A DNA stretch of 48,039 nucleotides. Origin: Amoebophrya sp. A120 (taxonomy: Eukaryota; Protista; Dinoflagellata). Location of the stretch: the NCBI GenBank assembly GCA_905178155.1, contig CAJINV010000007.1:352597-400635 (forward strand), written 5' to 3'. Positions within the stretch are counted from its first letter, which is position 1. The number at the start of each line of letters is the position of its first letter. The notes beneath the pieces were generated by a model, which made no database searches, was not told where the DNA came from, and saw only the letters and a program-made list of their open reading frames with translations. This document shows positions 1-44,497 of this stretch, in pieces. Position numbers and translations under genes: made by a program.

Positions 1-149
1 GCTTCTCATGCAAGCGATGCGAAACACGACTAGAATCTGCATCAGAAAGATTCATACTCCTTTTATGCATGACAAAAAGTTTTCATTTGGAAACTTCGCA
101 TCACAAATTTTTGCAACTTTGGGGGTGGGGGGCACTTTTCACTGTAATA
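1..149. mobile_element. Introner family D, right part (truncated by window)
   Basis: Highly similar to the right half of 20820-21124 and 39030-39340; ends ...CACTGTAATA. Confidence 0.85.
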
Positions 150-1997
150 CGTTTGATCACGAATTCGTCGAAGATGGCAGCTTTGTCAGAAGCACGCAGG
201 CGCACCGCCTCGGTCCGCTGGGCCCAGCACGCAAGAAAAGCAGCAACACCGACTGCATATCCTGTGGAAAAACATCCACATCCCCTAGTTAGTTTGTCAA
301 CAGGCCGATCTGCATGCTTAAAATGTCTCTCCTGTGGCGCCCACCCATGTTGAGACGCATTTTCTAGTCGTGCTTTGGAACTTGTGATCATGCTCAAGAA
401 ATCAGCAAAGTAAGTACTTTAGATCTTCTTTGACGCGGTTGCACGAGCTGAATACGATTGAATTACTCGCCCAAACTTGATGTCATGCGTAACAGCCACA
501 GCTTGTTGATTTGTCTTGCAGTAGATTTCCCGGCTTGACTATGTGTCATGCAAAGCAGCCAAAACTTGTGGCATGCAAAGCAGCCAAAACTTGTGGATTT
601 GCCTAGCCGATTCCCCATCTTGACTCCTAGGTTTGTGTTGCAAAATCCCCTAGGTTTGTGTTGCAAAATCCCCTTTTCGTAAAGAAAAGCACTTCGTAAA
701 GAAAAGCACTTCGTAAAGAAAAGCACTTCGTAAAGCAAAGCACTTCGTAAAAAGAAAGCGTAGCCATTGTAGCTCATGTAAAGACTCACAGCAGATACTT
801 CAACACACTAGCAGCGTGCGGGGGGGACCATTGTGGTCCCCCCCACCCGCTGCGCCTCTAAATAAAACACGCCAGGGAGTTTTCTTTTTTTTCCAGCAGA
901 GGCTGGCTGTGGGAAGTAGGGCATTGCCGGGGATTTGAAATGCAAATTATATGACGTTGGCACTGCGATTCTATTTCTATAGCTTATCTTGTGACGTTTA
1001 CATTTTGATTTTCTTTGGCTTTTCTCACTCTTTGGACAGCTTTCGCGTCACTTCATTGATTTTGCAAGTAATAGAAATCACCACGGAAAATGGAACGCGA
1101 ACGCGGAGTCGGAAACATTGAAAACGACCCCAAGCTCAACGGAAGCGCATGGAGGGTGGATGGGGGTTGCAAGATCTGCGCGTGCCGCTGCTGCTACAGT
1201 ATGAGGAAGACTAGGGCGTGGAGAATGCGCACGCGGGTGAGGAGGGAGGAAACGGGACCGAAACGAGAGCAAGGGGCGCAAGACGAAAGTGGATCGAGAA
1301 CCAACTTGCTGGAGCAGCGGACAAGAGCGGAAAGGAAGAATATCAAAACAAGATGAAAAAGCCTTTGATCCGCGCAATTGCTGGAATGTGAATGGCGTGG
1401 ACAGCGGAAGGGGTCTTTCACATTCCAGGAAACGCCCACCGCCCCCAATAGCTTCGTGATCCGAATGATGAAAAAAAATTTTAGAGGGGGCCGGGCAAAA
1501 AAAAAAAAAAAAAAAAATTTCCCGGCTTGACTATGGGAAGATGGGGGCGTTTTTACATATGACACTGCAACGATCGACGCAATCCTTACACCGAGAAAGC
1601 CTGCTATTGTGAGGAAAAATGCCCCCTCCCCATATCGAAAGCGAAACTTGTGTTGCTGTATTTGAGTACACAAATCCGAGCTGTCTTGTTGGAGAGCACT
1701 GCAGGCCCCTACGAAGTGTGAGTAGCGAGGCTTTGGCGTAGGCACTTAGCATGAAAAACATCCACGCTGTAGGCCCAACAGCATGACAAACCGCCTGCAC
1801 AATGCAGGGGAGCCTGCGGAGTTGCCTTCTTGCAAGACAGACGCGATTTGTGACCACAAATCAGCATCACAAATTTCCAAAAGTACACCTTTTCAGTATG
1901 GGGAGGGGGGATTTTTCCTCTCAATACCTGCGGATGCGTAGCTTCCCCCGCTGGTACTACACAGCGAATACTTCTTGGCGTTGATGTTCATCGGCAT
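1..1997 (-). CDS. Unknown signal-peptide protein family, paralog 1 (5' part; runs off the left window edge)
   Basis: Exons 1997-1927, 1599-1565 and 252-150, joined by excising TIR elements plus one TSD, give MPMNINAKKYSLCSTSGGSYASAGFLGVRIASIVAVGVAAFLACWAQRTEAVRL, homologous to the N-termini at 5849 and 13726. Confidence 0.8.
544..1516 (+). mobile_element. Putative retroposed insertion (SL-like motif, poly(A), 19-bp direct repeat)
   Basis: ATTTCCCGGCTTGACTATG at 525-543 and 1517-1535; 21-nt A run at 1497-1517; SL-like CGTAGCCATTGTAGCTCATG at 759-778. Confidence 0.6.
676..759. repeat. 17-bp tandem repeat TTCGTAAAGAAAAGCAC, ~5 copies
   Basis: Read directly from sequence. Confidence 0.95.
1605..1926. 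mobile_element. Introner family B
   Basis: TATTGTGAGGAAAAATGCCCCCTCCCCATA / TATGGGGAGGGGGATTTTTCCTCTCAATA; TSD CCTGC at 1600-1604 and 1927-1931. Confidence 0.92.
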
Positions 1998-3413: not shown

Positions 3414-5849
3414 TCAAACGAGTCCTCTAGCGTGAAGCAAATCAAGGGGGAAAACGACTGGAACAAGCTTTGTTGACATACCTGCGACTCGACGCCTATC
3501 GGATGCAACGTCGGCCTCATTGCCGCCGCTGAGAAAATAAAGCACCGTTAGCTGCACCGGCGGGCCATCGTCGCCGTTCGCCGGAACAGTCCACGGCCGC
3601 AAGCGACATTGCGACGGACTGCGGCTGCGACTCTGGCTGCTACTCTGGCTGCTACTCTGGCTGCGACTCCGGCTGCGACTCTGGCTGCGGCCCCGCTTCC
3701 TTTCATTAAGGCTGCTGCATCAGTTGCAAATATCCCTGGAAGTCTGGCAACGTCAAAACTTGTGGTGAGCTGCCCTGTGGGATAAAAAAAAGACCTCAGC
3801 ACTGAACTCGTCAGCACGCTACGCCGTGCATTCCAGGCCTCATGGTCATGGGGCATGCGCATGAAAAGCCTGCATGACAAAGTTTACAATCTTTCGCACC
3901 ACATCCAGATCCAGGGATAAATATCTTGACGCGATGCATATGTCTAGCTGTCTGTATTCGACGCTTGTCGTACCATCATATCCAGAGTAGATGATAGTTT
4001 GTACTCGACGACCACCAGTCCGTTCCGGGGACGGGGACGCAGGCCGGGTCCACATTCCGAGATCTTGCTCCACCAAACGGAGCTTCTCGTCCACCAGCCG
4101 GCGCTTCTGCAACATCGCCCGCCTGAAACCACGCTCCGAAATCCGATCCGGGACTATCGCGTAAACCCTTCTAGAGTCAGGGAACAAAGGATTGATCCAT
4201 CGACCTTGACAACCAACCCATTCCTCCGTCAAAAACGTCTCCTGGTGCCGAAGGAGGAGAAATTGCACATCAAGAAGCTGCACCACCACCATTCGCTTCG
4301 CTGGCTCGGAAAGGGTCTGGAGACGGTCTTTCAACTCCTGCGTCGTCTCCCGAAGGGAAGTGGGCAAAAACGTGTTCATCTCCAACTCGGATATGTCTTG
4401 TTGTAGGGCTTTCTGAAGGTCATCACCGATACTCTCCGCGTCCATAACGCGACGCACCGTGTTGAGGTGGAGAAGCCGCCTGGTGAACGTCAAATAAACC
4501 TGCCGCAAGCGAATGATATTGGCATTGCCCACAGCTTCCTCGTACCTCGACGGGACCCTCTTTTCTAGGGTTTCCGCACTCACGAAGGCCCGACTGACGT
4601 CCTTCCTATAATGCAAGAATTCCTTCCACGCGTCCGGGGTCTGGCAGGGAGGGGCAAGGCCTCTGGCCTTCTCACCACCAGATGCGAGCGCGTCGCCAAG
4701 GCCTGTCCTCCAAATGTCCCTGATGGACCTGTAATCTTCCAGCACCTGCTCACTCACAAGTTCACCTGCGAGGCGGTCCTCCAAAAAACGCAGTTCCTGA
4801 TCGATTATAGAGCGCCTCTGCAACGTGTTCCGTGGCACCGTGTTCTGGACCACCCCTCCAACGGCAGCGGCCTCGTCCAAAAGCTTCGCCTCAAGCATCT
4901 CCTGGAGGTGAGACCGATCCTCTTTCAGAAGCTTCGCCCTCTCCCGCCGCACCTCAAACTCCACGTCCGTCTCCACTCGTCTGCCGGACCGCGTCTCCTT
5001 GTCTATGCGGGTATGAACCTCTTGAAGCCTCTGGTTCACAAGCAGATGATCCTTGACGAGCTGAGATGTCCACTCCTCCGCGGGAGCGCCGTCCTCCAGC
5101 AATTCTTGCAAAAGCAGGTGTCGAAATAAGGACGAATCTGTCGTCGAAGGTGAGGGTCTGAGAGGACGGTACTGCATCGGGAGGCCACTTAGGATCCCCT
5201 CTGTCTCGATAGCAGAAAAGCTTCGCAAGTGCAGATAGCGTGGTATTACTCGATCAAGCTCCTCCGGGGACAGAAGCTCCAGGTACCGCGTATGACCCGC
5301 TCAGGTGATACAATCTGCTCAGACATTACAACAAGTAGAAGCGCAGCTTTATTGTGATGCAAGCGGTGCGCGGCCACCTGGGTTCTTACTCTCAGAGGAA
5401 TATTACGCAAGACAAGTTCTGGAGTCCCAAACCCCCGCACAAAAATTTTATTAATCTGGCGAAATTTGTCTTGCAGAAGGCGGAGGGCTCTGCGATTCTG
5501 TCATGCTCGTCAGGCAACACAAAATCCACATTCTATTGTAGCAGTTGAGATCATTGTAACACCTGAGCACGCTATACTCCGAAAACGCTACATCTTCAAC
5601 GAAGCTAGGATCAGGCCACCGCGCCTCGTCCTCCTCCGGCCGCAGGGTAATCATCGCAGTGTCTCCATCAGCAGCTCCGCTACTAGCAGCTCCGCTTGCC
5701 AGACTTACCGCACCGGCCGACTGAGCGCAGCAAGCAAGAAGAGCAGCAGCACCGCCTGTAATCGACGCAACCCTTGCGGCGAGAAAACCTGCCGACGTGC
5801 CGCGCGCAGAGCCCTTCTTGGCTCTGTGTTTGTCTTTGTTCACCATCAT
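3414..5849 (-). CDS. Unknown signal-peptide/coiled-coil protein, paralog 2
   Basis: ORF 5451-5849 joins ORF 3846-5228 through a 339-nt intron (FSEY|LHLRS). Shares RRERAKLLK and R.LVD.KL motifs with paralog 3. 3' end uncertain: probable intron at ~3721-3934 followed by an SR-rich tail. Confidence 0.72.
3721..3934. mobile_element. Degenerate introner (boundaries uncertain)
   Basis: Inverted pair TATCCCTGGA (3731) / TCCAGGGATA (3910), internal GCATGACAAA, possible direct repeat TGCAT at 3716 and 3935. Confidence 0.45.
5238..5573. mobile_element. TIR-bounded non-canonical intron (distinct family)
   Basis: ATAGCGTG...CACGCTAT inverted ends, 3-bp direct repeat ATA; excision keeps the frame. Confidence 0.7.
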
Positions 5850-6239
5850 TTTGGATAAATTAGAAATGACGTTTTTCCACCTGCGGGGGTAGAATGACTA
5901 CAGAGAAGATGTATATACAACAAATTTATGGCGAAAAATCGAAATCTATTTGAAGGTCGTGACCTTGTTCTACAGAAAGAAAGAATGTTGATTTGTGGCT
6001 TGAAGAAAGATGATTCGAGACGAAAGTACAGCTATTTTTATGCGGTTTTAGTGCTGGTACAAAAGTGCTTAAAGTCGATAACGGTTAAATCCGAATCAGT
6101 GGCGTTTAGTTTTTTTAGATGATTTGCTTTTTGTGTACTAAATGAGCTCCTTATAATTCCACTCGTCCTGCTTCCAAAACAAACACAAACAAAAAAAAGC
6201 TAGCGACTGTTGCTGTCGATTGACCAATGCAAACGGTCT

Positions 6240-7908: not shown

Positions 7909-10900
7909 TCACGGCTTCCCTTTGCAGCCGCCCGAAGGGTATCAAGTGTAAAAATGTCTGGGTCTGGAAGAATGCGCGATTTGTCATGCTGCTTTTCCAT
8001 GACGATGACCCATGAGGTCTGGAATGCCGGAGCTAGCATGACATATTCTGCGAGAACTTTCTAGTGCCTATCCTGCATGAGAAACTACCTCCCGACTTGG
8101 TCAAAATTGGGCGACTTTTGGTAATCATCGTTCGTTCGTATGGATCGGCTCTGCCGACCGGGTGACCCATCGCCTTGCATATAAATGACCGACATAGGCG
8201 ATCCCCGTTACGGGACATACATATTGGCCGTACGGAAGGGCCCTAGGCGCTACATACATAGTTCATCCTAGCGCCTACCACTTCGGTCGGGACTAAGTCA
8301 GCCTGGTCCTGGGGGTTCACAGCGCACTAGCCATCTGCTAGCATAAACAGACTGGGTTTTACAAACTGTAACTGATCTAACATCTCATAACAGTGAGGCC
8401 ATCATAAAGGTGCGCTAAAACGAGTTCGGGGCGCTCCGTACGGAAGGGAGCCTTTCGACGCGGCGCACACTCTCCTGTAGAGTTTTACGCGGAACACGGA
8501 TGGGCCGCGCACGCAACTCAGTCGAGGAGGACACACGCTCCCTCAATAATAGAGGTGGTAGTCACTCACGGCGGCTGGCCTGTCTGAAAACGGTAATCCC
8601 CACCTCCCATCTTCCCGGTTCGTCAATGACTCTGGCAAGCCATGTTACTTAGACTCCCCGCACATGCAAATATGGGACGGCGGGGGGGTTTTAAAAAGAG
8701 CTCTCGCCGTCCTTGATCTACTATAAAAGAAAAAGCCCTATAATTTCGGCGAGGCTGTTTAACTATTCGCTAGCTGATGGCCTCCTGTATAGTAATGGTC
8801 TCCCTTTTCTCCTCCTTTCCCCTTTCTCAATTTAACTCGCCTGCATCCTCCTGCTAATTTAACTCGCCTCCCCATTTATCTCGCTGAAAGCTCCGTCCTC
8901 AATTTCACTCGCCTGCCAATTTATTCGCGACGCCTACGGCTTTACTTCGGCGCATGGTGTGAAATCTTCGCGGCTTCTCTTCTCAGCTCCTCGACCTCTG
9001 CGCAGCGTTTTGCACTGTTGCCTTCGTTTTTTTTTTTTTTGGATCCGCGCCGCGCTTCAGTTTCAGTTTCAGTGGAGCGCCCCACCGGGCGGAATACTTC
9101 TGGTGGTAGACGTGGCCCAGGGATTTGTGGCTTCGCGCCGCGACGACTTGATGGGGGTCCCGCACCCCCCCTCCGTTTCCAAAAATGCAGTTTGTGCGTG
9201 AATGCTGCAAAACCTCCGACACCGCGGCACAAGAAGGAACAAGCTCCTCTTCACCATACACAAACCCAAAGAAGGAAATCTTCGGGATGAGGATATTGAT
9301 GACCGCAATCAATGACGCCAATGGCAACTACAACCCGAAGTAGGGGAGGGGTAGCTACTCCCGCACAACGCGCTGAATTCGCTTTGTACGTGTCGAGCCG
9401 GTAGCAGCGGCACACGTCCGACACAGCTTTTTTCACGTCGACGAAGAACTTTTTTTTTTTTGCTGCATCGGAAAACCCTAAACACCTAAACCCATCTATT
9501 TACTGCGGGAGGAAGCAGCCCCGGATTTTGTGCGACGAAGTTCGTAAAACGGTCAAAAAATTATTGTAGTGGTTACGCTATTGACTGTGTGCGCGCTTCA
9601 AAAAAACTTAAGCCCACACAGGTCCGCATTTAGCTACCGCCCGCCCTAAATGAGGCACGTCCTAACCCCGGTGGCAGCGAGGCAGTTCTTTTTTTTTGAA
9701 AATTACGCCGGGCGTTTGCAGGATAGCAGTAGCCGCAGATGCAAACCTGCGGCTGCTAAGACGGTTGTAAAATTAAATAGCACGAATAGAGTACTTTTAT
9801 TTGTACAAAGCGAAGTACTACGAACGAACGAGGGGGGAGGGGCGGGACCGTTGAACCCCCTGGCAAAAATCATGTCGCTCTGCTCTCCACCGGTGGAAAT
9901 CGAAGCTCTGCCCCGAACGATCGCCGTCTTCTGATATCAAGTGATAGACCCATACCCCCCAAGCAACAACCCGCTGGCTAGGCGGAAAAAAAAGAGAAGC
10001 CCCTGCGAGGACGCGGGGTCCGCGGAACGACTAGCGCTACAAGGCGTGGATCAAGTAAGACTAAGTGCGAAGACCACTAGGAGACGACAAAAGACTGTAA
10101 AAGGGTAGAGACCTACATCTACATGGGACAACACCGGGCACGGGGAAGATCTAATTTTTTAAAGGCGAAGGAGCGTACGAATTTGCGATCTAGCTCCTTG
10201 GACAAAACAAACGAAGAGCGGCAAAGGCGAAGTGCTTAATAACGACTACAAGATGGCAGGAGTCATACAAAGCATACATAGCAGCAGCAAGCAAATCGGA
10301 TTCGCATTGCTGTGCACCGGCAGAAACTTCAATCACAACGAAACCCAACCCCTCAGCCGCGAAGCCGAAGGGCCGGGGGCCTGGCACCTAACTCGAGGTT
10401 TGGAGTCCAAGCACCGACGTCCTGTTCTTGACATCTTGTTCTTTTGTAAGGCATGACTGCAATTCTTTTGTAAGGCATTGCAATTCTTTTGTAAGGCGCT
10501 TGTTTCTCTGAGTGCGGTCGATCTTCTTGGCCTATCGTCGTCGCCTGTTTGAAAGTTTGGACATTTTTGAGGCGCCCCGCGATTCGCCTGAAGCTTCTCG
10601 GGGTGATCTTGGCCCTGTCGCGTTCGTTGGCAAATTAAGGGATCCCCTGGAGATCCTTAATCTGACTGCGCTGAAACGATCTTAGAAGTATGAGGGCAGG
10701 ATCTTAAGACGAACGCGCCGGGTCATATTTTCCGGCAGTCCTCGAGCCTGCCGGGCCTTTTCTTTTTTAATTCAAACGGGAAATAGTGTTTTCGTTTTTT
10801 TCTATGATTTCGATGCTGTGCGTTTTTCAAAAATCTCCGGAGTGCATTTCTCAGACTTTTCAGTCGCTCGGCCTGGTGTCCGATTTTCGGTCCGTCACTA

Positions 10901-22800: not shown

Positions 22801-23906
22801 CGATAGGGGGAGGGGGGATTTTTCCTTTTGATAGGTTTTCTGCAAATTCCCGTCTGGGTCGTAAATCTCCACGCCGCTATCGTAGATCTCGCTCAGACAC
22901 TGGATCTCCATGTCGTCCGCCCAGACTCCCAGTTGCTGCTTCCGGTCCACATAAGAATCAAAGTCGCCGTCCTCGTACACGTTCAGGAAGTTCTGAAAAT
23001 GCGTATCCTGAGTAAAAACGTCCACACCCCAGAGTCAAGTTGAAAAATCTGCTACACAAATCTACCAGCTTTGATAGTTGCGCATGACAAGTTTGGCGTC
23101 GTATTGTGATCCTGTTTAGCTAGTTCAGCAGCATCACAGATCTAGAATATCGTGGTGATTCGAACATGACAAATTGCAAAACACGACTAGAAAACGCTCC
23201 TCATGGGCCTGCGCATGAGAACCATTTTAGGCATGCAGATTTGCACGACAACTCTGGGGTAAGAATGTTTTTGCGGAGGATAATGCGCCCTTTCCAGCCG
23301 CATGTACTCGAAACACTTTTTCCGAACTATCGAAGTGGAAAAAGCCCCCACCCCATACAAAACAGAAAATTTCTGTTGCTGGATTTCTCTACGCAAATCA
23401 GCGTTGTCTTGCAGGAAATGCTTGGAGGCATTTTCTACGCCTGACTGGGTAGGCAGAAGGCTAGCAGTTAGGCATGGCAGACAGCTTTGCAGTAAGCAAA
23501 AGCGCATGACAGATTGGCTGTGGAATGCTGCCAATGGCTCCCATTCGTCCCATACGCAAGACAGAGCTGATTTGTGGTCACAAACCAGCATTACAAATTC
23601 CCGTTCCGAGTACGGGGAGGAGAGCTTTTTCCTCATGATACGAACCATTTCGTGAAACTCCGGTGTGCCGTACATCTGGTCGGAAACAGATCGGTACAAA
23701 CAGTTTCCGTCCGACGCCTGGACTTCCTCGTGCCAGTTCCGCTCGTTCGCGTTGTTTGAATGTGGATCGTCTTGAACAAAATTGTTGTTGCTGGTCACCA
23801 TGCCGCTGTTTTGCTGTTGCTGCAACTGAAAATGGTCCGTCGTGTTAAAGTTCGGGTTTCCGCGGGTGGCGCGAGCCCTCTTGCGGTTGTTCGGGTCGAT
23901 CGTCAT
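19843..23906 (-). CDS. OTU-family deubiquitinase (OTUD5-like) with UIM motifs and C-terminal UBA-like domain
   Basis: Cys box SDGNCLYRSVSDQMYG, then VWADDMEIQCLSEIY, His box IRLTYRGQSHYNSL; UIMs EEMELKKALMASL and DDEALLQEALLLSM form only after excising 7 introners. Start uncertain. Confidence 0.9.
20185..20499. mobile_element. Introner family B
   Basis: TIRs; TSD AACAG. Confidence 0.9.
20556..20726. mobile_element. Introner family E
   Basis: TATGCATTGCAAAAGT / ACTTTTGCAATCCATA; TSD TGTGG/TGTTG. Confidence 0.85.
20820..21124. mobile_element. Introner family D
   Basis: TATTGCAATGAAAACTGCCCCCATCCCC TIR; TSD AAGGG/AAGAG. Confidence 0.88.
21175..21494. mobile_element. Introner family B
   Basis: TIRs; TSD CCATC. 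Confidence 0.9.
22515..22833. mobile_element. Introner family B
   Basis: TATCAAAAGGAAAAA / TTTTTCCTTTTGATA; TSD GGTTT. Confidence 0.92.
23004..23282. mobile_element. Introner family C
   Basis: TIRs; TSD ATGCG. Confidence 0.9.
23328..23640. mobile_element. Introner family B
   Basis: TIRs; TSD CGAAC. Confidence 0.9.
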
Positions 23907-27825: not shown

Positions 27826-28088
27826 TATCAAATGCAAAAATGTCTGGGTCTGGAAGAGCACAGCTTTGTAACGCACATTTTCCATGATCCATGATGTCTG
27901 TGATGTATGCCATAGCATCACAGATTTTTTGAGCGGTTATCTATGCGCATCCAGAGTGACAAACGCCCTCTCCGCGTAGCCAAATTTGAATCCTCTTGCT
28001 GGTCATGCAACACAGCTTTTTTTAGCATCCAAATGCAGCATCACAAGTTTGGCTCTTCCAGACCCAGACAACATTTTTGCATTTGATA
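27826..28088. mobile_element. Introner family A in the transketolase 3' UTR
   Basis: TIRs; TSD GTGAA; ~20 bp downstream of the stop codon. Confidence 0.9.
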
Positions 28089-28109
28089 GTGAAAGAGATG
28101 TGACTTATC

Positions 28110-31100: not shown

Positions 31101-33870
31101 TTCCGTAGAAATAAAGATCGCTCTGTCCTAACGCAACTACACTCAGCAACACAAATTCACTGCGTTCTACTTCCAGACATCCGCGGTGGATTTAAGTATT
31201 TGCATTTGATAAACGAACGTTGGCTTTGAACTCTGGGACTTTGCGAGTGTCACCGCAGCCTGAAATTGCTCTGGGTCCTCAGCGTCGCCTCGTTCGATGG
31301 TTAGTACGTTCCAACCGTAGGCTTCGAAACTGTTTTTATTTTTGTAGAATTCTACTTGCAAAAACTGCATGAGAAACGTTTAAAACGTTGCGTTGATAAT
31401 GATATTGGAGCCGCTGCATCACAGATTCAATTTGGACAAGCAACTACCCCCTCTACTAGTATGAAACATTTCTATACCGCTTCCCGACATTCTCCGTGAA
31501 CGCCAGCTCCGTGCTACCGTCGATGGAAATCTTGTTGTCGTCGTAAAATACGATCAACTTCGACAACTTCCAGTGCGCAGCGAGACTGCAATATCCCAGA
31601 GAAAAAATCTAGAAGGGCATATAATTTGTATTGCAAAAATGAATACACAGAAAATTTCGTCATGGACGGCCCCAAAAAATGCTGTTTAGAGTCCGCAAAA
31701 AAGATTTTTTTATGTATTTACTTTCGCATATACAAATATGACCTGCCTGCTTTTTTCTGTGTGATATGCAGGCCTCCGAAGCCACCCCCTCCATCATGCA
31801 GCCGTCCCCGGTTAGCACGTAGGTGTAGGATATCCTGTGTAAAAACATCCCCACCCCAGAGTTGTCATGCAGATCTGCAAGCGCAAGAGCATTTGTAATG
31901 CGCATTCCCATGAGAGGCATTTCTCATCGTATTTTGGAACTTGTAATGCTGTAAGCAGGATAACGAGATGGATTTGTTATGCGGCTCCCCTTGCTAAACT
32001 GCATTACACTACAGCCTGCAACTTGTCATGCGTGGCTCCCAAAACTTCGAGGTTTGTGTTGCAAAATCCCCGTCTTGACTCTGGGGTGGGGACGTTTTTA
32101 CAATCGATATAGGAGTCGAAGAGCGGGAACCCGGGCTTGTTAAACCGCGCGGCCAAATGCTTCTCGCATAATGCCATCCCCACCGCGTTGGTAATGCCCT
32201 GCCCAAGGGGTCCGGTGCACACCTCCACCCCGGGCGTGGCGAAGTTTTCTGGGTGGCCCATCCTATGTAAAAACGTCCCCACCCCATAGCTGTCATGATA
32301 ATCTGCAAGCATGGTAAAAAAGTTTCTCATGCGGAGCCCTATGAGAAGCGTTTTCTCGTCGCGTTTTGGAATTTGTGATGCTTGAATCAGCATGATAGGC
32401 TAGGTCTGATGCTGCCGGAGCTAACTAAACAAGACTACAGCACCCAGAGGCCAAACTTGTCATGCGCAGCAACCAAAGCTGGTTGATTTGTCTAGCAGAA
32501 CTCCCATCTTGACTCTGGTGTGGGGACGTTTTTACATAAGATATGGCCCGGGGTTTTGCTATGGAGCTGGCGGAAGAGCTTCAGGTCGTCCAGAGAAACT
32601 TGGTAGCTGATAAAAAGGTTTATTTTAGACGCATAAAAACTTACTTCACCTTTTGAATTTGAAAACAAATCTACTGCATGACAAGAATCTGATGTCGTCC
32701 ATATATCACGATCGATCGCAGGAGAAAATTGGTTCTCACTCGTGCTGCTGCCGGAAATTATAGGCTACGCCGATAATAATAAACCTATACCCTGTCAAGT
32801 GCAGCATGCAGTATTGCAGCGCGCACGCGTGTCCGTTCGATAGAACAAAGCGATTATCAAATGCAAAAATGTCTGGGTCTGGAAGAATGCAACGCGTGAT
32901 GCTATTTTTGGAATCTAAAAAAATCTGCATTGCATGAGTAGCAAAGGGAATGCAATTTTTGCTACGCTGAGAAAGCATTTGTCATGCGGAAGAGGCATCA
33001 AGAAGCCCTCAGAATATCTGTATTGCTAGAGTATGCATCACAGACATCATGGCTCACAGAATCTTCCAGACCCAGACATTTTTACAGTTGATAGCGATCC
33101 CGGTTCAGCCACTTCGGATTCTCCGGGGAGAAATGCATGATCTTCCCGAATATCAACTGCAAAAATGTCTGGGTCTGGAAGATTGCAACTTGTCATGCTG
33201 TTTTTGGACTCTAAAAAAATTTGTGTTGCATGACCCAGCAAGAGGGGCATAGTTTGCGCTACACGGACAGGGCATTTCTCATGCGGAAGGTGCACCAGGA
33301 AGCCCTCTAAAAGTCTGCGATGCTAGTCCTGCATTACAGGCATCATGGGTCATGAGAAATATGCATGACAAGTCTTGCATTCTTCCAGACCCAGACATTT
33401 TTGCATTTGATACCGAACAACGCAGCCGCTAATGGTGCGCACCCCATTGGCGCTCCCGGGTGGCCGGAATTCGCCTGCTGAACCATGTCCGCAGCCAGGC
33501 ATTATCCGTAGGAAAAACGTCCCCACCCCATACTTGTCATGCAGATCTGCATGCTCAGCATGTGTGTCATGCAGGTCTCCATGACAGGCATTACCTAGTC
33601 GCGTTTCTGAATCTGTCATGCGCCAATCAGGATGACAGAGAAGTGGATCTGTGATGCGTCTGAACTAGCTAGGCACGACTACACTGCGTAAGTAGCCAAA
33701 CTTGTCATGCGTGAGTCCCAAAGATGCTCGATTTGTCTTGCCAAAGTTCCAACTTGACTACGTGGTGGGGACGTTTTTACAAGGGATAGGCATCGGATCG
33801 TGTTTACGGCTAAAACGGATTTCTCATCGTGCGGACCTGGTGGATTTATATGATTGGCATAATTCGCCAT
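28110..33870 (-). CDS. TKT: Transketolase (17 exons)
   Basis: Spliced motifs [77 protein letters not shown]; 12 TIR/TSD introns, 3 GT-AG introns (32607-32790, 31330-31477, 28902-29038) and 1 ambiguous intron (~29932-30053). Confidence 0.97.
28229..28509. mobile_element. Introner family A
   Basis: TIRs; TSD GATCA. Confidence 0.88.
29405..29663. mobile_element. Introner family A-related
   Basis: TIRs; TSD CGGTG/TGGTG. Confidence 0.85.
30087..30295. mobile_element. Introner family F
   Basis: TATCCAAGAAAAAAACTG / CAGTTTTTTTCTAGGATA; TSD ATTTC. Confidence 0.9.
30359..30593. mobile_element. Introner family F
   Basis: Sister of 30087-30295; TSD CAGCG/CAGTG. Confidence 0.9.
30655..30911. mobile_element. 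Introner family A
   Basis: TIRs; TSD TAGTT. Confidence 0.9.
30930..31211. mobile_element. Introner family A-related (degenerate)
   Basis: TATGCATTGCAAA / TTTGCATTTGATA; TSD AAGGA/AACGA. Confidence 0.8.
31592..31766. mobile_element. Introner family F-like
   Basis: TATCCCAGAGAAAAAA / TTTTTTCTGTGTGATA; TSD TGCAA/TGCAG. Confidence 0.82.
31831..32109. mobile_element. Introner family C
   Basis: TIRs; TSD TAGGA. Confidence 0.92.
32259..32543. mobile_element. Introner family C
   Basis: TIRs; TSD TGGCC; splits the GHPE motif. Confidence 0.92.
32855..33093. mobile_element. Introner family A
   Basis: TIRs; TSD GCGAT. Confidence 0.93.
33151..33412. mobile_element. Introner family A
   Basis: TIRs; TSD CCGAA. 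Confidence 0.93.
33503..33788. mobile_element. Introner family C
   Basis: TIRs; TSD GGCAT. Confidence 0.92.
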
Positions 33871-35494
33871 GAATTCAGCTCCACAAAGAAGATGAAAACG
33901 CTACTAGCTTGTCTTCGCCAGGTCCGCATGAAAAATCCGTTTTGTTCTCATGCAGATTTCTACACTACATGTACTCATAGTGTCGACGTAATATCACTTA
34001 CCTTTCGCAGACTGCAGGTCGGCTTTCAGCCGTTTAGCAGCAGGCTCCCCCGCACCAGCGGTCATGGTCATAGTGGGTTTATTCACGACAATATCGGCGG
34101 ATCAATTTCGAAGTACTTATTATATAGGTGAAACTTTTGGTTACACAAAAATGTTGCACTATTCTGACTCAGTGCACTAGAAGTTTGTTTCGGAGTTCTT
34201 TTTGTATTCAGAAGATTACCGTCAAAAATCAGTTGTTTCCCGTTTCGTCCGCTCCTAATAATGGAGCTACTTCTCAAACAGTTCTGAGGACAAATCGGTT
34301 GAAATGAATCGGATCACAGACAGGTGTCGCTTGTTTCCAAAAACTGCTTGAAAATTTGTCTGCACCCGCAGCAAAGAACTTTGCAATTTGCCGTCGCTTA
34401 TTGGGTCGTTTTGATATAAAAATGTGCACAAAACAATTCTAACTTTGGCTCGGGCACAGAGGACCACTTGCGCACCGGACGCAGCTTCGCGACACTGTGG
34501 CAAAACTTCCGAAATGTTGAACAGTGCGCGAGGTTCCTCTTCCTTTTGTCCTCGACCACCAGCGTAGGCGAAGGCGTTAATTTCGCACTACAACTTCTTT
34601 GCTCCAATTTGACACGCGGCTTTGGATTTTCGCAAAATGTCAATATCATTGTGTGTTGCTCGTAGAAGTTGTTCCGCAACACAAGTAGTACCGACTCGAT
34701 GCTGCTGCATGTAAGAAAGATCTAGTCGCTGCGCTGTAAAACGCTGCTGCAAGAAAAAAATGATCTGGGCTTTGATATTGAACAGCTTTTGCAAACTCTA
34801 CTTCAGACACTTTTCACGGAAACTACGCCGCGCTTTGTTCGATAAGACTATGCGAATGATTTCCTGTAGAAGGCGCAGCGATGTTGCACGGGGCGAGCCA
34901 GCACAACTCCGATGCGCTCTAGGTAAAGATTCGGAGAGGCATTCATTTTTATGGAGAATGAGGTGCAGGTAGAAGTTTACCCCTTTTCTGTGGCTCAACT
35001 ACGAGGGCAAACGGAAATGGAATGCAAACAATCGTACAATTACTACTGCAATTTAACGCCGCTGTTAGTAGGCAGCTTGATTCTTTTGCTTAATAAAGGT
35101 ACATTTTTATTGGAGATCCAACATGAAATAAAGGTAGTGGAGGCATTGTTCGAAATAAAACTGGAGGTGCTAGTAAGGCTCTGCATTGTAAAAGAAAAAA
35201 GAAGCTGTTCGCCATTTTCCCGCTGTGCCACCGATCTGGCACCACAACCGGAAAGAAGACGCTTGCCGCAAGTTGTAGCTTTCACACACAGCAGGAAAAT
35301 GAACTGTGCTAGCGTGTTATGGAAAATAAGGACAGACTCGAGAATTATCGCAAGCACCTCGAGAAAGAGAAAAACGTAAATGTGGAAAATATACATTTTC
35401 ACATAGAGCAGTAGTGCCAGTGTAGTTCTTTATAACTGCATTCTACAACTACAAGACTTATCTCGTCGTAACCCAGCATTCTGTCAAATTCTTC

Positions 35495-38400
35495 TCAGAA
35501 CGGCGTGCACCTGGAAGCGATGTTCAGGGCGCAGTCGGTTTGAAAATACGTGCACCTTGTGAACCGCAGTTTGTCGACCTCCTGCTTCGACACCCTATGC
35601 TTTGCAAATATGTCTGGGTCTGGAAACTTGTAATGCTAAAAATGCATGATATTCTCACTGCAATACGCAGCCAAGCATGACAACTTTTGCGGGCTGCTAG
35701 GTGTTGCGTATTCCGCATGACAAACTGCGTTTTTGCATGACATGCAAGAGAGCCTCTTCGCGCTCACGCAACACAGATTTGAGAACTAGGAGATGTCTTC
35801 ATGACAAACTTCCAGACCCAGACATATTTGCAGTTCATACACCCCCGCCAGGAGCAACACCTGCTTGGCCACCGGATCCTCGCCCCGCAGAGGGTACTCC
35901 ACGACCGTTTTTGTGTGGAAAAATGCCCCCTCCCCATATCAAAATGGAAATTTGTGATGCTGATCTGTGGCCACAAATCGGATTACTCTTGCAGAAAATG
36001 CTTCTCGATATTTTCCAAGCCTGTTCGAGTATGCAGAAGGCTAGCGATGAAGCATGGCAAACAGGTTTGCAGTAGTCGAAAGCGCATGACAGACTCGCTG
36101 TAGAATGCGCCACAATACTCCCATTAACCTATAGGCAAGACAAATCTGATTTGTGTACGCAAACCCAGCATCACAAGTTTCCTTTTCGACCATATGGGAA
36201 GGGCGCATATTTCCTTTTGATAACCGTTTTTGTGTGGGTGTCGTAGGTATCAGACAAGATCAAATCCTATCAAATGTAAAAGTGTCTGGGCCTGGAAGAA
36301 TCCGAAACTTGTTATGCTGTTTTTGCATGACACAGAATGTCTGTCATGGAAGCCCTAGCATCACAGATCTTTAGAGGCCATCCTGGTACCTATTCCGCAT
36401 GACAAATGCCCTACACGCGTAGCACAAACCGGACTTCTTTTGCTGGTCATGCAATACAGAATTTTTTAGAGTCCAAAGTTAGCATCACAAGTTCCAACCT
36501 TCCAGACCCAGACATTTTTGCAATCCATAAATCCACCTTTCGTGGGTTCAAACTCACCATCGAGTGCGACGTCGAACCACCCAACGCGCCGGCGCTGGAG
36601 TTGAACTTGCTGTCATCAGTTTCGTCGAGAAACTTGGAACCTGATTTTCAAATCGAAATTATGTTGCTAATGTGGGGAGCTTGTTTGTTGCCATGCACAG
36701 AAGTGCCCCACAATGAATATAATTATCGGGGGCGTTAAGAACTGCAACATCCTTGTCCTACACGACCTTGCAACACAAAAGCTACTACTTGCTTTTGTAC
36801 CTCCCGTGTCTCCCCCCGGACTGAGTTCCTCGGGGTCCTCGCTTTTCACCAAATTTGGACTCGAGGCAGTCAAGTTCTGGCTCACGTAACTCAAGTTCGT
36901 CAGGTGATTCTCCCGGAGCCGGTGTCGCAGCAACTCTGCTAGATAAACCGACTGTTCGTTCGGCGAGGTCACGTCGTGGATCCCGTGAAAGAGCCGAATC
37001 CGCCTCCGCGGCAGCCGCTCGAACAGGAGGGGGTGTCTTGCCAGGAGCTGCAGCGGGGAATGCTCTTCGATTTTCTCCTATGCATTGCAAACATGTGGTC
37101 TGCACACTAAGATTGCAAGGCTTGTCATGCACATTTCGCATGACCCAAGGTTTGTCTGTGATGCATGCCCTAGCACCACAGAGTTTTTGCGGACTTCTTC
37201 ATGCGTATGATCGTCCCGAATGACAAATACACTCTCTGCGTAAGTAGCAAAAACTGGAAGTCAACTCCTCTTACTGCTCATGCAATGCACATTTCTTTTT
37301 CACTCCACAGGCAGCATCACAAGTTGCACTCTCGTTCCCGACCCAGACTACATATTTGCATTTGATATCTCCTCCACCCCGGCGAACATTTGGATGATTT
37401 CCGCGGGGATCGCCGCCTTCGCGAGGTGATCCTGCATATGAACTGCAAATATGTCTGGGTCTGGAAGAGTCGGGGCTTGTCATGCACATTTTGCATGACC
37501 CATCAGGTCTGTGATGCTGGTGCTAGCATCACAGATTTTTTGAGAGCTTCTTGATGCTAATTACGCATGACAAATGCCCTCTCCGCGTGCCAAGAGCTGA
37601 CTCCTCTTACTGCTCATGCAACACAGATATTTTTAGAATCCGCAGACAGCATTACAAGTTCCACTCTTCCAGACCCAGACATGTTTGCATTTGATCCTGC
37701 AAACCCGGCAAATCGTACACACCCGACCACCCGAAAAAGTTCGCAAACTTAAACTCGTCGGTACCCAGGAGGGCGAGCAGAGCCAGGTGCGCGCCGGCAG
37801 ACTGGCCACACAGAGTAATTTCGTTCGGATCGATGATGGGCAATAGCTTCGGTTTATGGTCCAGCTGATGTGTACTACCAGCAGCTGCCGAATGATCACC
37901 ACCCCCGCCGCCCACTTGTTGCTGTTTCAAGCTCGCATTGGAACAACAACTCGGGTTGTTGCTGTTGGGGATGTTCTGCTTCACCCACCGCAGCGCCTGC
38001 AAAACGTCGTCAACCATCTCGCGGAAGGTGGCGAATGGAAAATTCCGGTAGTCGATGGAAATCGAGACCACCTTCCCGCTCTCCGCTAGGTGTCCGCTCA
38101 ACGCTGCACACCAGTACCGATGGCCGATCGTCCACGCGCCGCCAGTCACGACGATGACGAGCGGAAGCTTGTATGCTGAGCAAAAACGTCCCCACACCAG
38201 AGTCAGGATGGGAAATCTGCTAGACAAATCACCAGGCTTTGGCTGTTGCGCACGACAAATTTGGGCTCGCAATGTAGTGGCGCTTAGCTAGTGCAGCAGC
38301 ATCACAGATTCAGCACAACATGCAGACTTAAGCATCACAAATATCAAAACACCACTAGAAATTGCTTCTCATGGGTATCCCATGAGAAATATTTTCAGCA

Positions 38401-40575
38401 TGCAGATATGCATTACAACTCTGGGGTGGGGACGTTTTTACAAATGATAGCTTGTAGTTCGGATTTTGCAAGTCCTTTTCCGTCAGGTTCAGCGGGTAGA
38501 AAACTTCCAACACATTCCGGCTGTGCTTTCCGTACTGGAAGGTCTCCGTGTAGCGGAAATTCTTGTACGAGTTGTTCTCACCGGTGGATCCGGATGAAAA
38601 GCTTTTACCCTGTGGTCCACCACCGATCAGCTTCCTTCCGCCGTACACGTACCTCCACCACACCCAAATGATAGCTATGCATTGCAAAAGCAAATAAAGT
38701 ATAATTGCACTGCTATGATAAAATTGCATGACAAGAAAATTCTCGACATAGTTGCAAAAATGGATTTTCTCATGCGCGACATTTTATTTCAGGTAAGATA
38801 GCATGGCTCTGTAGTCAACATGCCAGACTCCTGCAGTACGAAATTATACTTGCTTCATGCTCAGGATACCCCCGGGAAAAACGCAAATCCCGACGATGAC
38901 GATCCCCTGCAGGTACCGAATGAAGGTCAAGATCCACTGCGTCCAGAACAATGGGTTGAGAGTAATCTGAATCAGCCAGAAGTAAAGTCTCGGGAACCGA
39001 AACACCCGTTTATTTTTCCCCTGCTGTTTTGTTACAATCAAAAGCGCCCCCATCCCAGAAGCTGGCAGCATTTTCACGTGTATTGCAAACCTTTCCAATG
39101 AAAACAATCCCCGTCTTGCATATACCAGCATCACAAATTCGCCATGCTGAATAGCAAAAATTTGTATTGCAAAAGATCCCAGAAAGGGCGGCGCTTGTCA
39201 TTCAAGCGATGCTGTATACGACTAGACTCTGCATCACAAAGATTCATAGTGCTTTCATGCAAGACAAAAAGTTTTCATTTGGAAACTTCGCATCACAACT
39301 TATGGCAACTTTCGGGGTGGGTGCATTTTTCATTGTGATATGCTTCTGGAGGTACTCTTCCCGCGCGTCCGGGGAGTTGGTGAAGGGGGATGCGTATGAA
39401 TTGCAAAAAGTGTCGTACTCGTATAAATGCATTACAAATTTTCCCAGCGTGAGAAATAAAACTTGTAATGCGGTTTTGCCTTAAGAAAAACATTTGTAAT
39501 GCAAGACTTGCATTTATACGAGTACGATACTTTTGCACAGGATAATGCGTAGTTGCTATCCTCTGAAACGGAGCCGACGGAATTGTACGAGTACCGGTTG
39601 CTGGAGCGATTCGAAGCCGTGCTGTACCCACGATTCCGCCCGCCGTGCTGCGGATATGAATTGCACAAGCATCGCACTTCTAGTATGAATTGCATTACAA
39701 ATTTCCTCAGCATGAGAACTGGAATTTGTGATGCTGATTGACGTTAGGAAAAAGATTTGTAATGCATAACTGCAATTTTTACCACGAGTACGATACTTTT
39801 GCAATACATAGCGGATGGATGTTCGCGATTTCCACGTAGAACAGATGCAGCCAGAACTTCTTCACCGGTCGCTTGATAAACTTGTAGCACTCGGTCACGA
39901 TGGTTCGGCACAGAAACGGGATGAAGGTGACGATGAAAATCACGGACGAATAGAGAATGTAGAAGTAGCTTTCCGCGGTGGAAACCTTCTTCGTGGACGG
40001 TCCTTGTGGGTTCCCCGTGCTGCTCGTGTATTCTTTCGTACCACTGTGCTGCCCGACCGAGCGGGACACCTGCCGGATCTGCGACCCGTAGTTCATCTGC
40101 GTGTTCACGGTTTTATCCAACAGAAAAAAGGCTAGAGCACCTCCACATTATGCAAAAATAAACACACAGCAAAGAAAATCTGTCATGGGCGGGCCCATAG
40201 CCATAGCACGCTGCTCTTGCTACGTAGCATGTTGTGCTTCTAGCTTTTTTCTGTAGGATATGCCCGGGGCGACAGCTCCGAACTGCTGGTGACCAGGGAA
40301 TTCGCTCCAGACAAATCCTCCGATGGGGTGTAGTTCCAGCTGCGGAGCAGGTTCTCAAACCGCGTACGGTCGACGTTGAGGGACTGAAATAGCTCGTTTT
40401 CGTAGCGGTTGTTGGGCACATTGAAGGTCCACTCGTCCCCGCGGTAGACGTGGATCAGACCGTAATCCGCGTCATTGGTCGGTAGAATCAGCGGCGAATT
40501 CGACATCGGGGAGGATATCTGTGGCGACCCGGGTGAGGCCGCGGGGAGGTAGTGCCGCCGCGGGGTTTCCGGCAT
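35495..40575 (-). CDS. Isoprenylcysteine methylesterase (ICME)-like alpha/beta hydrolase with N-terminal TM segments
   Basis: VVTGGAWTIG, IDYRNFP, nucleophile GQSAGAH, HGIHD (Asp), THT (His), YPLRG, C-terminal TPF*; 11 TIR-derived introns plus one GT-AG intron at ~36641-36788/36800. Start uncertain. Confidence 0.87.
35596..35839. mobile_element. Introner family A
   Basis: TIRs; TSD CACCC. Confidence 0.9.
35909..36222. mobile_element. Introner family B
   Basis: TIRs; TSD ACCGT, extended to a 15-bp direct repeat. Confidence 0.88.
36268..36529. mobile_element. Introner family A
   Basis: TIRs; TSD AATCC. Confidence 0.9.
37079..37367. mobile_element. Introner family A
   Basis: TIRs; TSD TCTCC. 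Confidence 0.88.
37437..37696. mobile_element. Introner family A
   Basis: TIRs; TSD CTGCA (direct repeat extends to GATCCTGCA). Confidence 0.9.
38172..38449. mobile_element. Introner family C
   Basis: TIRs; TSD GCTTG. Confidence 0.9.
38676..38868. mobile_element. Degenerate family-E introner now bounded by GT...AG
   Basis: TAT...ATA termini, TSD lost; on the minus strand GTATCC...GCATAG (38869-38675, 195 nt) is in frame. Confidence 0.7.
39030..39340. mobile_element. Introner family D
   Basis: Similar to 20820-21124; TSD TGTTT/TGCTT. Confidence 0.87.
39395..39544. mobile_element. Introner family E
   Basis: Long TIRs; TSD ATGCG. Confidence 0.9.
39655..39810. mobile_element. Introner family E
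   Basis: Sister of 39395-39544; TSD GCGGA. Confidence 0.9.
40114..40260. mobile_element. Introner family F-like, TSD not recognisable
   Basis: TATCCAACAGAAAAAAGGCTAG / CTAGCTTTTTTCTGTAGGATA; removing element plus 5 nt restores the frame. Confidence 0.75.
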
Positions 40576-42938: not shown

Positions 42939-44497
42939 TTACTTCGTCGGCGGGATGTAGGCGTTCGTGTACAAGTGCCGGGCTTTCTTCAACATCGCCA
43001 TCTTGTTGTCCTTCCGCTCGATGTAATCCCCAGTCGACCCAACATCTCCGAAGAAGAACAAGCTACTCCCAGGCGAGTCGATCCCGTTGTCCGGGAAAGT
43101 CTTCGTGTCCGGCGAATCCCGCCCGTACGGCATCGTGTTAAACCGGTAGTTCAAAAACTGGTCGGAAATCGCCTCCACACCATCGTGGGCGACGGCATCC
43201 GGGGTCAGGTACTTCGTTAACTCGCTAAAGTCCCGCTTCTCCGTATCCTGTGGAAAAACGTCGCCGCCACCCCAGAATTGAAATGAGCTGCACTGCAAGA
43301 TAGCAACACAAATCCACAAGTTTTGTGTGTTGCACATGTTGACAAGCTTGGGCTCGTAGTGTCGTCCTAATTAGCATTTTAAAGCGCATCACAGATCGAT
43401 CATCTTATTCTGGTTCCAGCATGGCAAGTCGCCAGATAGCATTAGAAACTGCTGCTCAGCATGGGCGTGCGCATGAGAAACTTTTTGGGTTTGCGGATTC
43501 GCATGACAAAAACTCTGGGGAGATGGGGACGTTTTCACTATGGATACTCCGTGGCTTCCTGGATCGCTTGGTCCCACAACTTTTCCAAAGCGATTACTTT
43601 CCTGATAAGTTTTATTTCTGCAAGATCATTACTTCCTATTCGTATATCGTATTCTGTCGTCCTTTACGTGCATTACAAAAATTCAGTATCACCTCGTTTC
43701 CGCATCACAAATTTTGAAGAACCAGAAAAATAAGTACATGTTGTATTTCTGCATGCGCTGTTCCAGGTCCTCGGACTCGGAGAGGAAGAAACTATGCATT
43801 GCAAATATGTCTGGGTCTGGAAACTTGTGATGCAAGGAAGGGAATAGTGAGCTCAGTGCAATGCGCTGCCAAGCATGACAAGTTTTTTTCATGTTTCTGA
43901 GTTGCGTATTCCGCTTGAGAAACTGCGTTTTTGCATAACTACGGGGAGGAGGAGCTCTTCGCGGCCACGCAATACAGAGTTCAGAGTCATGCCAGATTAG
44001 CATGACAAATCTCGTCGCAACCTCCCAGACCCAGACTGATATTTGCATTTGATAAAATCCACTACCCCACATCTTCGAGGTTAGCTCGTACATCCGCAGC
44101 TTCTCGATTGCCATATACGCATCGGTTTCCGAGACAACGTACCTGAGCAAGGTAAGTTTTGGCTCTGTAGTCTCGTCGCCCATCTTTTTTCTTTTTGTCC
44201 TACTTGATCTTGATCTTGAATGAAGAACTGCATGAGAAATAATGCTGCTACCATGCACGCCCGGCATCGCAGAAAAAAGTATCAAAAAAAATTATTATAC
44301 GAGACAAACAGGTTGTATCCGAGCAAAACGCCCAGCACGCCGAGGCATTTCAATCCGAAACCCGGCAATTGCCGATCCCACTCCGCCACTGCTGGCCCGA
44401 GTGAACTGCCGTACATCTTTACGACGAAGTCTTTCACCGACGTCATCACCAATTCCATCGTTGGCCGCTTGGACCGGAGCCATAACCTGGGGATCAT
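42939..44497 (-). CDS. Probable myzozoan cytochrome c oxidase subunit, ApiCox25-like
   Basis: Hydrophobic segment, then EKLRMYEL...WGSGFFLSESED, LEKLWDQAIQEAT, YRFNTMPYG..PDT..FP, GDYIERKDNK and YIPPTK*, resembling apicomplexan ApiCox25 as recalled (not searched). N-terminus and first intron uncertain. Confidence 0.65.
43244..43546. mobile_element. Introner family C
   Basis: TIRs; TSD CTCCG. Confidence 0.9.
43793..44054. mobile_element. Introner family A
   Basis: TIRs; degenerate TSD GAAAC/AAATC. Confidence 0.85.

Follow-up and report, generated by a model that had tools for sequence, protein, structure and literature searches.

Introduction

Inverted-repeat introner elements of the dinoflagellate Amoebophrya sp. 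A120 have been described in Farhat 2021 (PMC7789003). There, 29,850 copies with a mean length of ~240 nucleotides (nt) are reported, mixed with GT-AG introns. Their inverted repeats start with TAT, followed by seven looser bases and AAA, and they carry direct repeats of 3–5 nt, including one example of 5 base pairs (bp); the paper reports no transposase in A120, calls the splice sites 'variable' and states that the border 'remains unknown'. The RNA-validated set was limited to 40–1000 bp, so that long members such as the two at 258 and 7940 described below fall outside it. In this study, we analyzed a stretch of 48,039 nt from Amoebophrya sp. A120 (GenBank assembly GCA_905178155.1, contig CAJINV010000007.1, positions 352,597 to 400,635 of the forward strand; hereafter the window) with many such elements, which are skipped in transcripts together with exactly 5 nt and whose informative junctions fit one cut register. 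A transketolase exon and a hydrolase exon of the window are each 100% identical to A120 proteins, and thus the elements are the A120 introner elements and the system is already known, as the initial annotation of this DNA had noted for Amoebophrya. They agree with that description in host, TAT ends with the run of A, direct repeat, occurrence in families and absence from transcripts; they differ from it by a duplication of 5 bp throughout and by junctions fitting one register, compared with 3–5 nt and an open border.

Gozashti 2025 (PMC12130899) lists 58 A120 introner families, most rows being classified as terminal inverted repeat (TIR) DNA elements of unknown superfamily. In its supplement, family fam38 is entered as 'Ginger; 5-bp TSD, TA/TA Termini' (TSD, target-site duplication) with frames resembling Copia/Gypsy, and is also stated to be without Ginger termini and TSDs. 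In contrast to the present results, splice sites are listed there as a mixture, automatic TSD lengths range from 2 to 6, and the accessible parts give no common register. Frames like those of fam38 were not found in the window, and its elements are unlike Ginger transposons, with no integrase domain in the window frames scanned and with ends reading TAT. The novelty that the initial annotation had attached to its shared rule of termini and duplication was overstated, since Farhat 2021 already gives the TAT start, repeats of 3–5 nt and one case of 5 bp, and '5-bp TSD, TA/TA Termini' is in Gozashti 2025.

The nonconventional introns of euglenids (PMC12501133; PMC11282704) resemble the A120 elements in their nature of miniature inverted-repeat transposable elements (MITEs), paired ends, non-GT-AG borders and a 5′ overhang shorter than the 3′ overhang, and sliding repeats were likewise settled there by means of non-slidable introns. 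Their core is CDG/CH'G with overhangs of 3 and 5–6 nt, whereas A120 has TAT/ATA with 1 and 4 nt, and the lineages are unrelated. Euglenid introns are excised as circles (PMC12501133; PMC12621601). The introns of Fritillaria borealis (PMC11282704; PMC13326754) are also non-canonical and of TIR/TSD transposon origin, and their removal by an altered U2 spliceosome is a precedent. They prefer AG-AC and AG-AT ends, retain U1 and involve U2AF paralogues, whereas in A120 the bases at +1, −1 and −2 are unconstrained and no U1 was detected.

Materials and methods

Elements were collected by an end-to-end scan and by searching known ends back onto the window with BLAST. Element ends, starts and duplications are given on the coding strand of the host gene, which was the minus strand in every case checked, and elements are named by their first position in the window. 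The end of element 3718 was corrected to 3940 before ends were counted. A strict scan required TAT...ATA, a duplication and an inverted repeat, and was run on 20 second-order Markov sequences as controls. As a second assembly set, 165 loci from public JACKZZ01 contigs were used, for which it is not established that the strain is the same as A120. There, 319 elements were called without a duplication criterion, with TAT and ATA ends required, and their strand was inferred by a codon model for which four genes of the window served as training set. Of these, 20 with three or more mismatches were dropped first, and 224–226 of the 299 left passed the strand filter.

RNA evidence consisted of assembled contigs from one study, which represent majority forms only and among which X4, X5 and X6 derive from one sample. 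Their RNA-type status is a program's guess, which is backed by the skipped GT-AG introns. Joints listed were 15 of 29 for the first stretch compared and 15 for the second, 12 of the latter being chimeric DNA joints. For the length-sum test, the gap between listed contig pieces was compared with the element plus 5 nt. The register k is the number of duplication bases retained by the upstream exon, and joint coordinates follow the leftmost convention, which was verified on perfect repeats. The deposited protein P0121 is a transcript-based annotation and may share source material with the RNA contigs.

Elements and their ends

The window contains 39 complete elements at 258–44054 and one right end at position 149 that is cut by the window edge (Table 1), in agreement with the roughly 40 elements of the initial annotation. 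They make up 35.5% of bases 1–44054 with a median of 268 bp; two long members reach 1307 and 4622 bp. On the coding strand, 37 of the 39 start with TAT, 34 end with ATA and 32 have both. The duplication of 5 bp is exact in 28 elements and has at most one mismatch in 35, being largely decayed in three (3718, 38676, 40114), and exact duplications of 3, 4, 6, 7 or 8 bp abutting both ends were found in 0 of 39. The strict scan gave 27 elements in the window and 0 in each of the controls. When the 37 short elements were clustered by BLAST together with the cut one, 11 clusters resulted, 7 of them with at least two members, where at least six TIR families had been proposed. In the second assembly, the 5-bp duplication is exact in 240/319 elements and has at most one mismatch in 283/319, and copies are 75–94% identical. 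End positions 11–13 are A in 87–94% of element ends.

The earlier statement that the elements are without GT-AG borders holds for the most part: 32/39 allow no GT/GC/GA-AG or AT-AC reading, but element 1605 alone can be read as GT-AG, three give AT-AC at the register inferred below and three can be slid to GA-AG. Element 22515, with AAACC on both sides and no canonical reading, is as had been described, and the protein motifs named in the initial annotation are rebuilt once the element and one duplication are removed. Ordinary GT-AG introns sit in the same genes. With TIRs, a duplication of fixed length, no coding frame and many copies, the elements have the features of MITEs; the TIR pattern matched neither viral contigs nor prokaryote genomes (0 matches each).

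A 9-base motif common to the families, YTSTVWTGC, occurs in 142 copies in 9.6 kilobases (kb) of elements and in 27 copies in 28.8 kb outside, i.e., ~16-fold denser in elements, and points inward from both ends. It is also present on the sense strand of 5/6 canonical introns (29932–30053, 31330–31477, 32607–32790, 36641–36800 and 43602–43737), which may be decayed elements or may have a binding factor in common with them. The motif was rejected as a branch site, its sense copies in elements being clustered in the 5′ part. In elements 35909 and 37437, one end is replaced by the exon sequence flanking the opposite end, thereby creating direct repeats of 15 and 10 nt, respectively, with loss of ATA or TAT. 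This suggests conversion by an empty allele or complementary DNA (cDNA). Both elements are still removed as judged by length sums.

Removal of the elements from RNA

RNA-type contigs skip at least 16 elements at listed joints or adjoining pieces and 13 more by exact length sums, which gives 29 of 39. The comparison with RNA took in the elements from 20185 onward, of which five have joints outside those listed. The length sums are exact (206 = 206, and likewise 214, 59 and 309), and 1057 − 892 = 165 corresponds to a predicted GT-AG intron. At listed joints, one X4 contig of 3530 nt lacks twelve elements of the transketolase gene as well as four of its GT-AG introns, and the transketolase rebuilt from these joints has a single open frame that agrees with the A25 orthologue throughout. 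In the last gene, both elements and the GT-AG intron are skipped by X5 and X6 contigs; element 38172 is skipped in X3 and X5, and element 40114 in X5. In contrast, the DNA-type run X1 reads through elements 38676, 40114 and 43244 at a depth of 22–24 with no difference; none of its listed joints is exon-exon, and they link element ends through other loci with a shorter side of <30. This agrees with the initial annotation: RNA-type contigs skip the elements at borders other than GT-AG, and DNA-type X1 keeps them.

Retention of 37/39 elements would shift the frame or bring stops in all three frames. Orientation varies: elements 27826 and 33151, of one family and in opposite orientations, are both removed in one spliced transcript, and in the second assembly each of the five families tested is present in either orientation (61 plus vs 45 minus). 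Removal of the elements at the RNA level, with the elements kept in the DNA, is supported by these data.

The raw RNA runs X9–X11 matched only element ends with foreign flanks and never exons of these genes. Reads at 30147–30196 (X11, ~400) and 33150–33199 (X9, ~130) are element ends joined to other loci and carry fixed differences, which points to abundant RNAs, from a different locus or strain, that retain elements. At 34400–44300, the summed X1 contig depth is 65,604 over element parts and 22–30 on unique DNA, a value that is not a copy number.

Register of the cuts

Elements with mismatched duplications, proposed earlier as a means to locate the cut, did reveal the register. The values allowed are k ≥ 1 (31592), k ≥ 2 (30359), k ≥ 3 (30930), k ≤ 4 (29405), k = 2–4 (43793), k = 3–4 (40114) and k = 4 (38676). 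These seven informative junctions belong to five BLAST clusters and three genes, and k = 4 is their sole common value. At element 38676, the end of an X5 piece at 38671 together with the exact length sum gives k = 4, and protein P0121 reads PG-V-IW at this junction, as is expected for k = 4 only; the A25 orthologue also has PGV. With 4 as the only common value, the intron is N-TAT...ATA-NNNN, i.e., it includes one base before and four bases after the paired ends. Elements 38676 and 40114, whose duplications agree in 1/5 bases, are still removed with exactly 5 extra nt, and thus spacing rather than repeat identity matters.

One junction fixes this register and six bound it to two positions, and it probably applies to the elements in general. 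No statement of a fixed register for A120 was found in the literature searched, in which coverage of subscription papers was mostly lacking, and the accessible part of PMC11453091 has nothing on a register. The register is what the present analysis adds; the elements themselves are already described in strain A120.

Candidate machinery

A cut-and-paste transposase would have made the 5-bp duplication at insertion. From the transcript, the element and exactly 5 nt leave at the level of contigs (29/39), restoring the pre-insertion sequence, and the upstream exon would generally retain duplication bases 1–4 and the downstream exon base 5. The inverted repeat, or proteins bound to it, would bring the ends together, and the ends would set both cuts, so that exon sequence and orientation would be irrelevant. 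The catalyst would, by a slight preference, be U2/U5/U6 without normal U1, with the acceptor chosen by distance; the donor would retain +2U and +3A as in canonical GUA donors, and an A of the terminal AUA, 5–7 nt from the acceptor, is the putative branch. Taken as a whole, we see about an even chance that an altered major spliceosome, taking its measure from the element ends and not from GU-AG, cuts these insertions from pre-messenger RNA at one register.

Of six registers, only register 4 places TA at +2/+3, which then follows for the 37 elements starting with TAT, and the canonical donors examined have GTA in 7/7 cases. According to Farhat 2021 (PMC7789003), A120 has 83/89 spliceosomal proteins and U2, U4, U5 and U6, and U1 was not detected. 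In Table S4 of the same paper, the nine leading non-canonical boundary pairs of A120 all have T at +2, which is suggestive only, as the table does not state how sliding was resolved. At register 4, the 224 strand-inferred elements include 11 with GT-AG ends vs 3.6 expected and 10 with AT-AC vs 3.8, and the first and last intron bases are G.G or A.C in 57/224 vs 31.7 expected. These are the first/last pairs tolerated by the active site of the spliceosome (10.1101/212811).

Several observations weigh against a spliceosome of this kind. On the other strand, the mirror position shows nearly the same enrichment for G.G/A.C (39 vs 25.0; 32 vs 19.1 at a stricter strand threshold), so that a symmetric target preference of the transposase would account for most of this signal, and the 39 elements of the window give only 10 vs 6.0. 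Because of this mirror signal, the enrichment of first and last bases neither proves nor discounts a spliceosome. G at +1 (76/224 vs 65) and terminal AG (20 vs 15.6) show no significant enrichment. Each of the 16 possible acceptor dinucleotides is represented, a range poorly accounted for by the known active site, and a spliceosome would need to open a long duplex lying over the donor. Moreover, the terminal three pairs are predicted to be paired (p > 0.5, 37 °C) in 24/37 short elements and not in 13, including 38676. Concerning the register, the exact value comes from the junction of 38676, and under random registers the other six would all admit 4 by chance with p = 0.039; the contigs come from one study with a guessed RNA status, X4–X6 being one sample and P0121 maybe the same material. 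Farhat 2021 (PMC7789003) calls the sites variable relative to the hairpin.

Ten of the 13 elements without predicted terminal pairing are removed, 38676 among them, and thus recognition of the ends by proteins may matter as much as the hairpin. The initial annotation had proposed a structure-guided, non-GT-AG excision acting on the terminal hairpin. Definition by the ends and action at the RNA level are borne out, but the hairpin as the recognized feature is not, and nothing found here places the catalyst outside the spliceosome. GT/GC-AG ends occur in 1/39 elements of the window and in 16/224 of the second assembly at any register. For the minor spliceosome, the U12 donor consensus is AT-AC or RTATCCTT, and the elements do not conform to it, with AT-AC in 3/39. 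Minor small nuclear RNAs are reported to be absent in A120 (Farhat 2021, PMC7789003; no new search was made here).

The same register could also be produced by a non-spliceosomal endonuclease and a ligase, similar to tRNA splicing or to RNase III, which would make its cuts 1 nt upstream and 4 nt downstream of the terminal duplex and join the exons, convergently with the euglenid nonconventional introns, with TAT/ATA being conserved for the transposase only. We take this possibility seriously without expecting it to be the correct one. It would accommodate that 4 donor and 16 acceptor dinucleotides all occur near background and that both orientations are used. In Euglena, N3CDG...CH'GN5–6|R has the same short-5′/long-3′ overhang, paired ends are needed and circles arise, and enzymes of this sort are proposed for diplonemids. 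A purine follows the cut in 142/224 elements vs 126 expected (p = 0.019), weakly resembling the Euglena |R. However, no enzyme has been identified, TA at +2/+3 would be a one-in-six coincidence, and several removed elements are without predicted terminal pairing. The over-representation of GT-AG (11 vs 3.6) and AT-AC (10 vs 3.8) also speaks against it, as mirror trinucleotides are not enriched (5 vs 4.2), with one control position being high (15 vs 7.5). A broader version, in which A120 has a second, non-spliceosomal splicing machine for most introns of its messenger RNA (mRNA), appears doubtful. Such a machine would be blind to junction sequence, measure 1 and 4 nt from UAU/AUA, handle inserts of at least 4.6 kb in either orientation and be independent of the Euglena system, with introners as safe havens for other mobile DNA.

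It is improbable that removal is precise in length while the cut slides within the duplication by element or family, register 4 being merely the commonest. A figure legend in Farhat 2021 (PMC7789003) says so, only one junction excludes register 3, and the contigs show majority forms only. On the other hand, the seven informative junctions admit 4 and no other single value, and sliding in a decayed duplication would alter the message, whereas a single form matching the orthologue is seen. Programmed or somatic excision from DNA, with transcription from cleaned templates, is very improbable: inverted ends with a duplication are a transposase substrate, rare variants are lost in contigs and the second stretch has 87 joints beyond those listed, but X1 contigs cross exon-element borders at the depth of element-free DNA, and no exon-exon join is among the joints listed. 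Template switching of reverse transcriptase at hairpins flanked by direct repeats is a known cDNA artefact that typically arises at stable hairpins carrying short direct repeats, but as an explanation of the skips it is scarcely credible, given the disrupted frames upon retention of 37/39 elements, the match of the joined transketolase to its A25 orthologue and the equally exact skipping of elements with 1/5 repeat identity.

Mobility and nested inserts

The fixed 5-bp duplication, the TIRs and the shared 9-base motif are consistent with one type of transposase. Of the transposase with 5-bp TSDs postulated initially, the fixed duplication is confirmed, but the enzyme was found neither in the window frames nor in 593 kb of second-assembly loci. 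Among the 16 window frames scanned, those of the 4622-bp element have 0 Pfam families, and the 593 kb include 4 elements of >450 bp, none with a transposase evident by eye. The 4622-bp element was rejected as an autonomous partner, its frames being without a Pfam family and its interior resembling a nested insert. For the 525-codon frame in this insert, two protein searches yielded no homologue, and it shows neither a Pfam family nor a sign of a transposase; the element gave no Rfam match beyond one chance match.

In the second assembly, a member of the same family (locus L002) carries an insert at the same internal spot (4330–5940; 85% identity over 850 bp, 11-bp duplication), of which ~650 bp at one end are common with the window insert. 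Judging from features familiar from such elements and from short tandem repeats at the shared end, the nested insert looks like a truncated retroelement without long terminal repeats inside an introner. The nested inserts possibly represent a retroelement targeting introners or one old composite that spread. At locus L026 (505–1608), a 1104-bp TAT...ATA element of another family has an exact 5-bp duplication and a repetitive interior, with no transposase evident in frames judged by eye only.

Host genes and neighbouring repeats

The gene at 19850, judging from its motifs, presumably encodes an OTU/UIM-like protein, and we take the gene carrying element 25494 to encode a CGFS glutaredoxin-like protein. 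The transcript retains a 13-nt micro-exon (30913–30925 at register 4) lying between elements 30655 and 30930. This micro-exon contains the start of the deposited transketolase P0001 (455 aa), which is ~240 N-terminal residues short and differs from the X4 contig at the C-terminus.

At ~150–1990, 3560–5900 and 12560–13735 on the minus strand, three or four related genes resemble one another in a hydrophobic stretch at the N-terminus, and their scanned frames gave no Pfam family. The elements of 1.3 and 4.6 kb are among those in these genes. Behind two of these genes lies a 430-bp duplication of 89.5% identity (2474–2883 and 6528–6944). Arrays of a ~91-bp unit in opposite orientation, 73–78% alike, surround a GC-rich region (14844–15338 and 18700–19216). 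Two satellite-like arrays, one based on GTGTGC and one with a GC-rich palindromic unit of ~65 bp, occupy 44670–47350.

Table 1. Elements, host genes and nested features of the window. Duplications are given on the coding strand; two differing copies are separated by a slash.
Feature	Position	Strand	Basis
Cut element, right end only; family of 20820	1..149	.	sequence
1307-bp element, TGCAG, coding start TGT; removal with 5 nt preserves frame of small gene	258..1564	-	sequence
Element, GCAGG; sole GT-AG reading, at register 4	1605..1926	-	sequence
Old element, decayed AGACA/CAGCA, coding end ATG	3718..3940	-	sequence
4622-bp element, commonest family, 36-bp arms 94% complementary, exact CCCTT	7940..12561	-	sequence
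Nested insert of ~4.35 kb in 4622-bp element	~8130-12480		sequence
525-codon E/K/R-rich open frame in nested insert	10908..12485	-	sequence
Element, GTCGT	12637..12901	-	sequence
Host gene, ~690 codons, 7 elements, ends approximate	19850..23906	-	sequence, X4 contig
Element, CTGTT	20185..20499	-	sequence
Element, CAACA/CCACA; AT-AC at register 4	20556..20726	-	sequence
Element, CTCTT/CCCTT	20820..21124	-	sequence
Element, GATGG; RNA-type piece starts at 21495	21175..21494	-	sequence
Element, AAACC; no canonical reading	22515..22833	-	length sum 206=206, three elements together
Element, CGCAT	23004..23282	-	length sum (206=206 group)
Element, GTTCG	23328..23640	-	length sum (206=206 group)
Element, GCAAA, coding end AAA	25494..25761	-	sequence
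Element, TTCAC; behind transketolase stop in X4 contig frame, still skipped	27826..28088	-	joint 27820/28089
Transketolase gene (approximate ends), coding part with 12 elements; 5 GT-AG introns (4 by joint, 1 by length sum)	28113..34071	-	X4 contig
Element, TGATC	28229..28509	-	joint
Informative element, CACCA/CACCG; base 5 from downstream copy, k<=4	29405..29663	-	joint 29400/29665
Element, GAAAT	30087..30295	-	joint
Informative element, CACTG/CGCTG; k>=2	30359..30593	-	joint 30353/30594
Element, AACTA	30655..30911	-	joint 30655/31212 with 7 letters between
Informative element, TCGTT/TCCTT; k>=3	30930..31211	-	X4 contig joint
Informative element, CTGCA/TTGCA; k>=1	31592..31766	-	joint 31586/31767
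Element, TCCTA	31831..32109	-	joint
Element, GGCCA, coding end ATG	32259..32543	-	joint
Element, ATCGC	32855..33093	-	joint
Element, TTCGG; family of 27826, opposite orientation	33151..33412	-	joint
Element, ATGCC	33503..33788	-	length sum with predicted 165-nt GT-AG intron
Alpha/beta-hydrolase gene, P0121, PF00135, PF07859, PF20434; 11 elements, one 160-nt GT-AG intron	35495..40575	-	
Element, GGGTG	35596..35839	-	length sum 214=214
Element, ACGGT; exon-like bases in place of coding 3′ end, giving 15-nt direct repeat	35909..36222	-	length sum
Element, GGATT	36268..36529	-	length sum
Element, GGAGA	37079..37367	-	length sum 59=59
Element, TGCAG, coding start GAT, 10-nt direct repeat	37437..37696	-	length sum
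Element, CAAGC	38172..38449	-	adjoining pieces, X3 and X5
Decisive element, decayed GGGGG/GCTAT; register 4 alone fits	38676..38868	-	X5 piece end 38671, sum 309=309
Element, AAGCA/AAACA, coding end ACA; AT-AC at register 4	39030..39340	-	length sum
Element, CGCAT	39395..39544	-	length sum
Element, TCCGC	39655..39810	-	length sum
Informative element, decayed GGGCA/AAACC; k = 3 or 4	40114..40260	-	X5 adjoining pieces 40109/40262; P0121
Element, CGGAG	43244..43546	-	joint 43238/43547, X5 and X6
Informative element, GATTT/GTTTC; k 2-4	43793..44054	-	joint 43788/44056, X5 and X6

Conclusions

Since splitting the duplication 4+1 brings back the sequence present before insertion, any exon site would tolerate an insertion, with no demand on the target. 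A single register makes the process testable by indicating the site of a branch or circle junction and the bases to mutate, and it would allow the re-annotation of tens of thousands of junctions. The question concerns about two thirds of A120 introns, and either outcome would be unusual for nuclear mRNA, be it a spliceosome working with neither U1 nor AG or a distinct system that cuts and joins.

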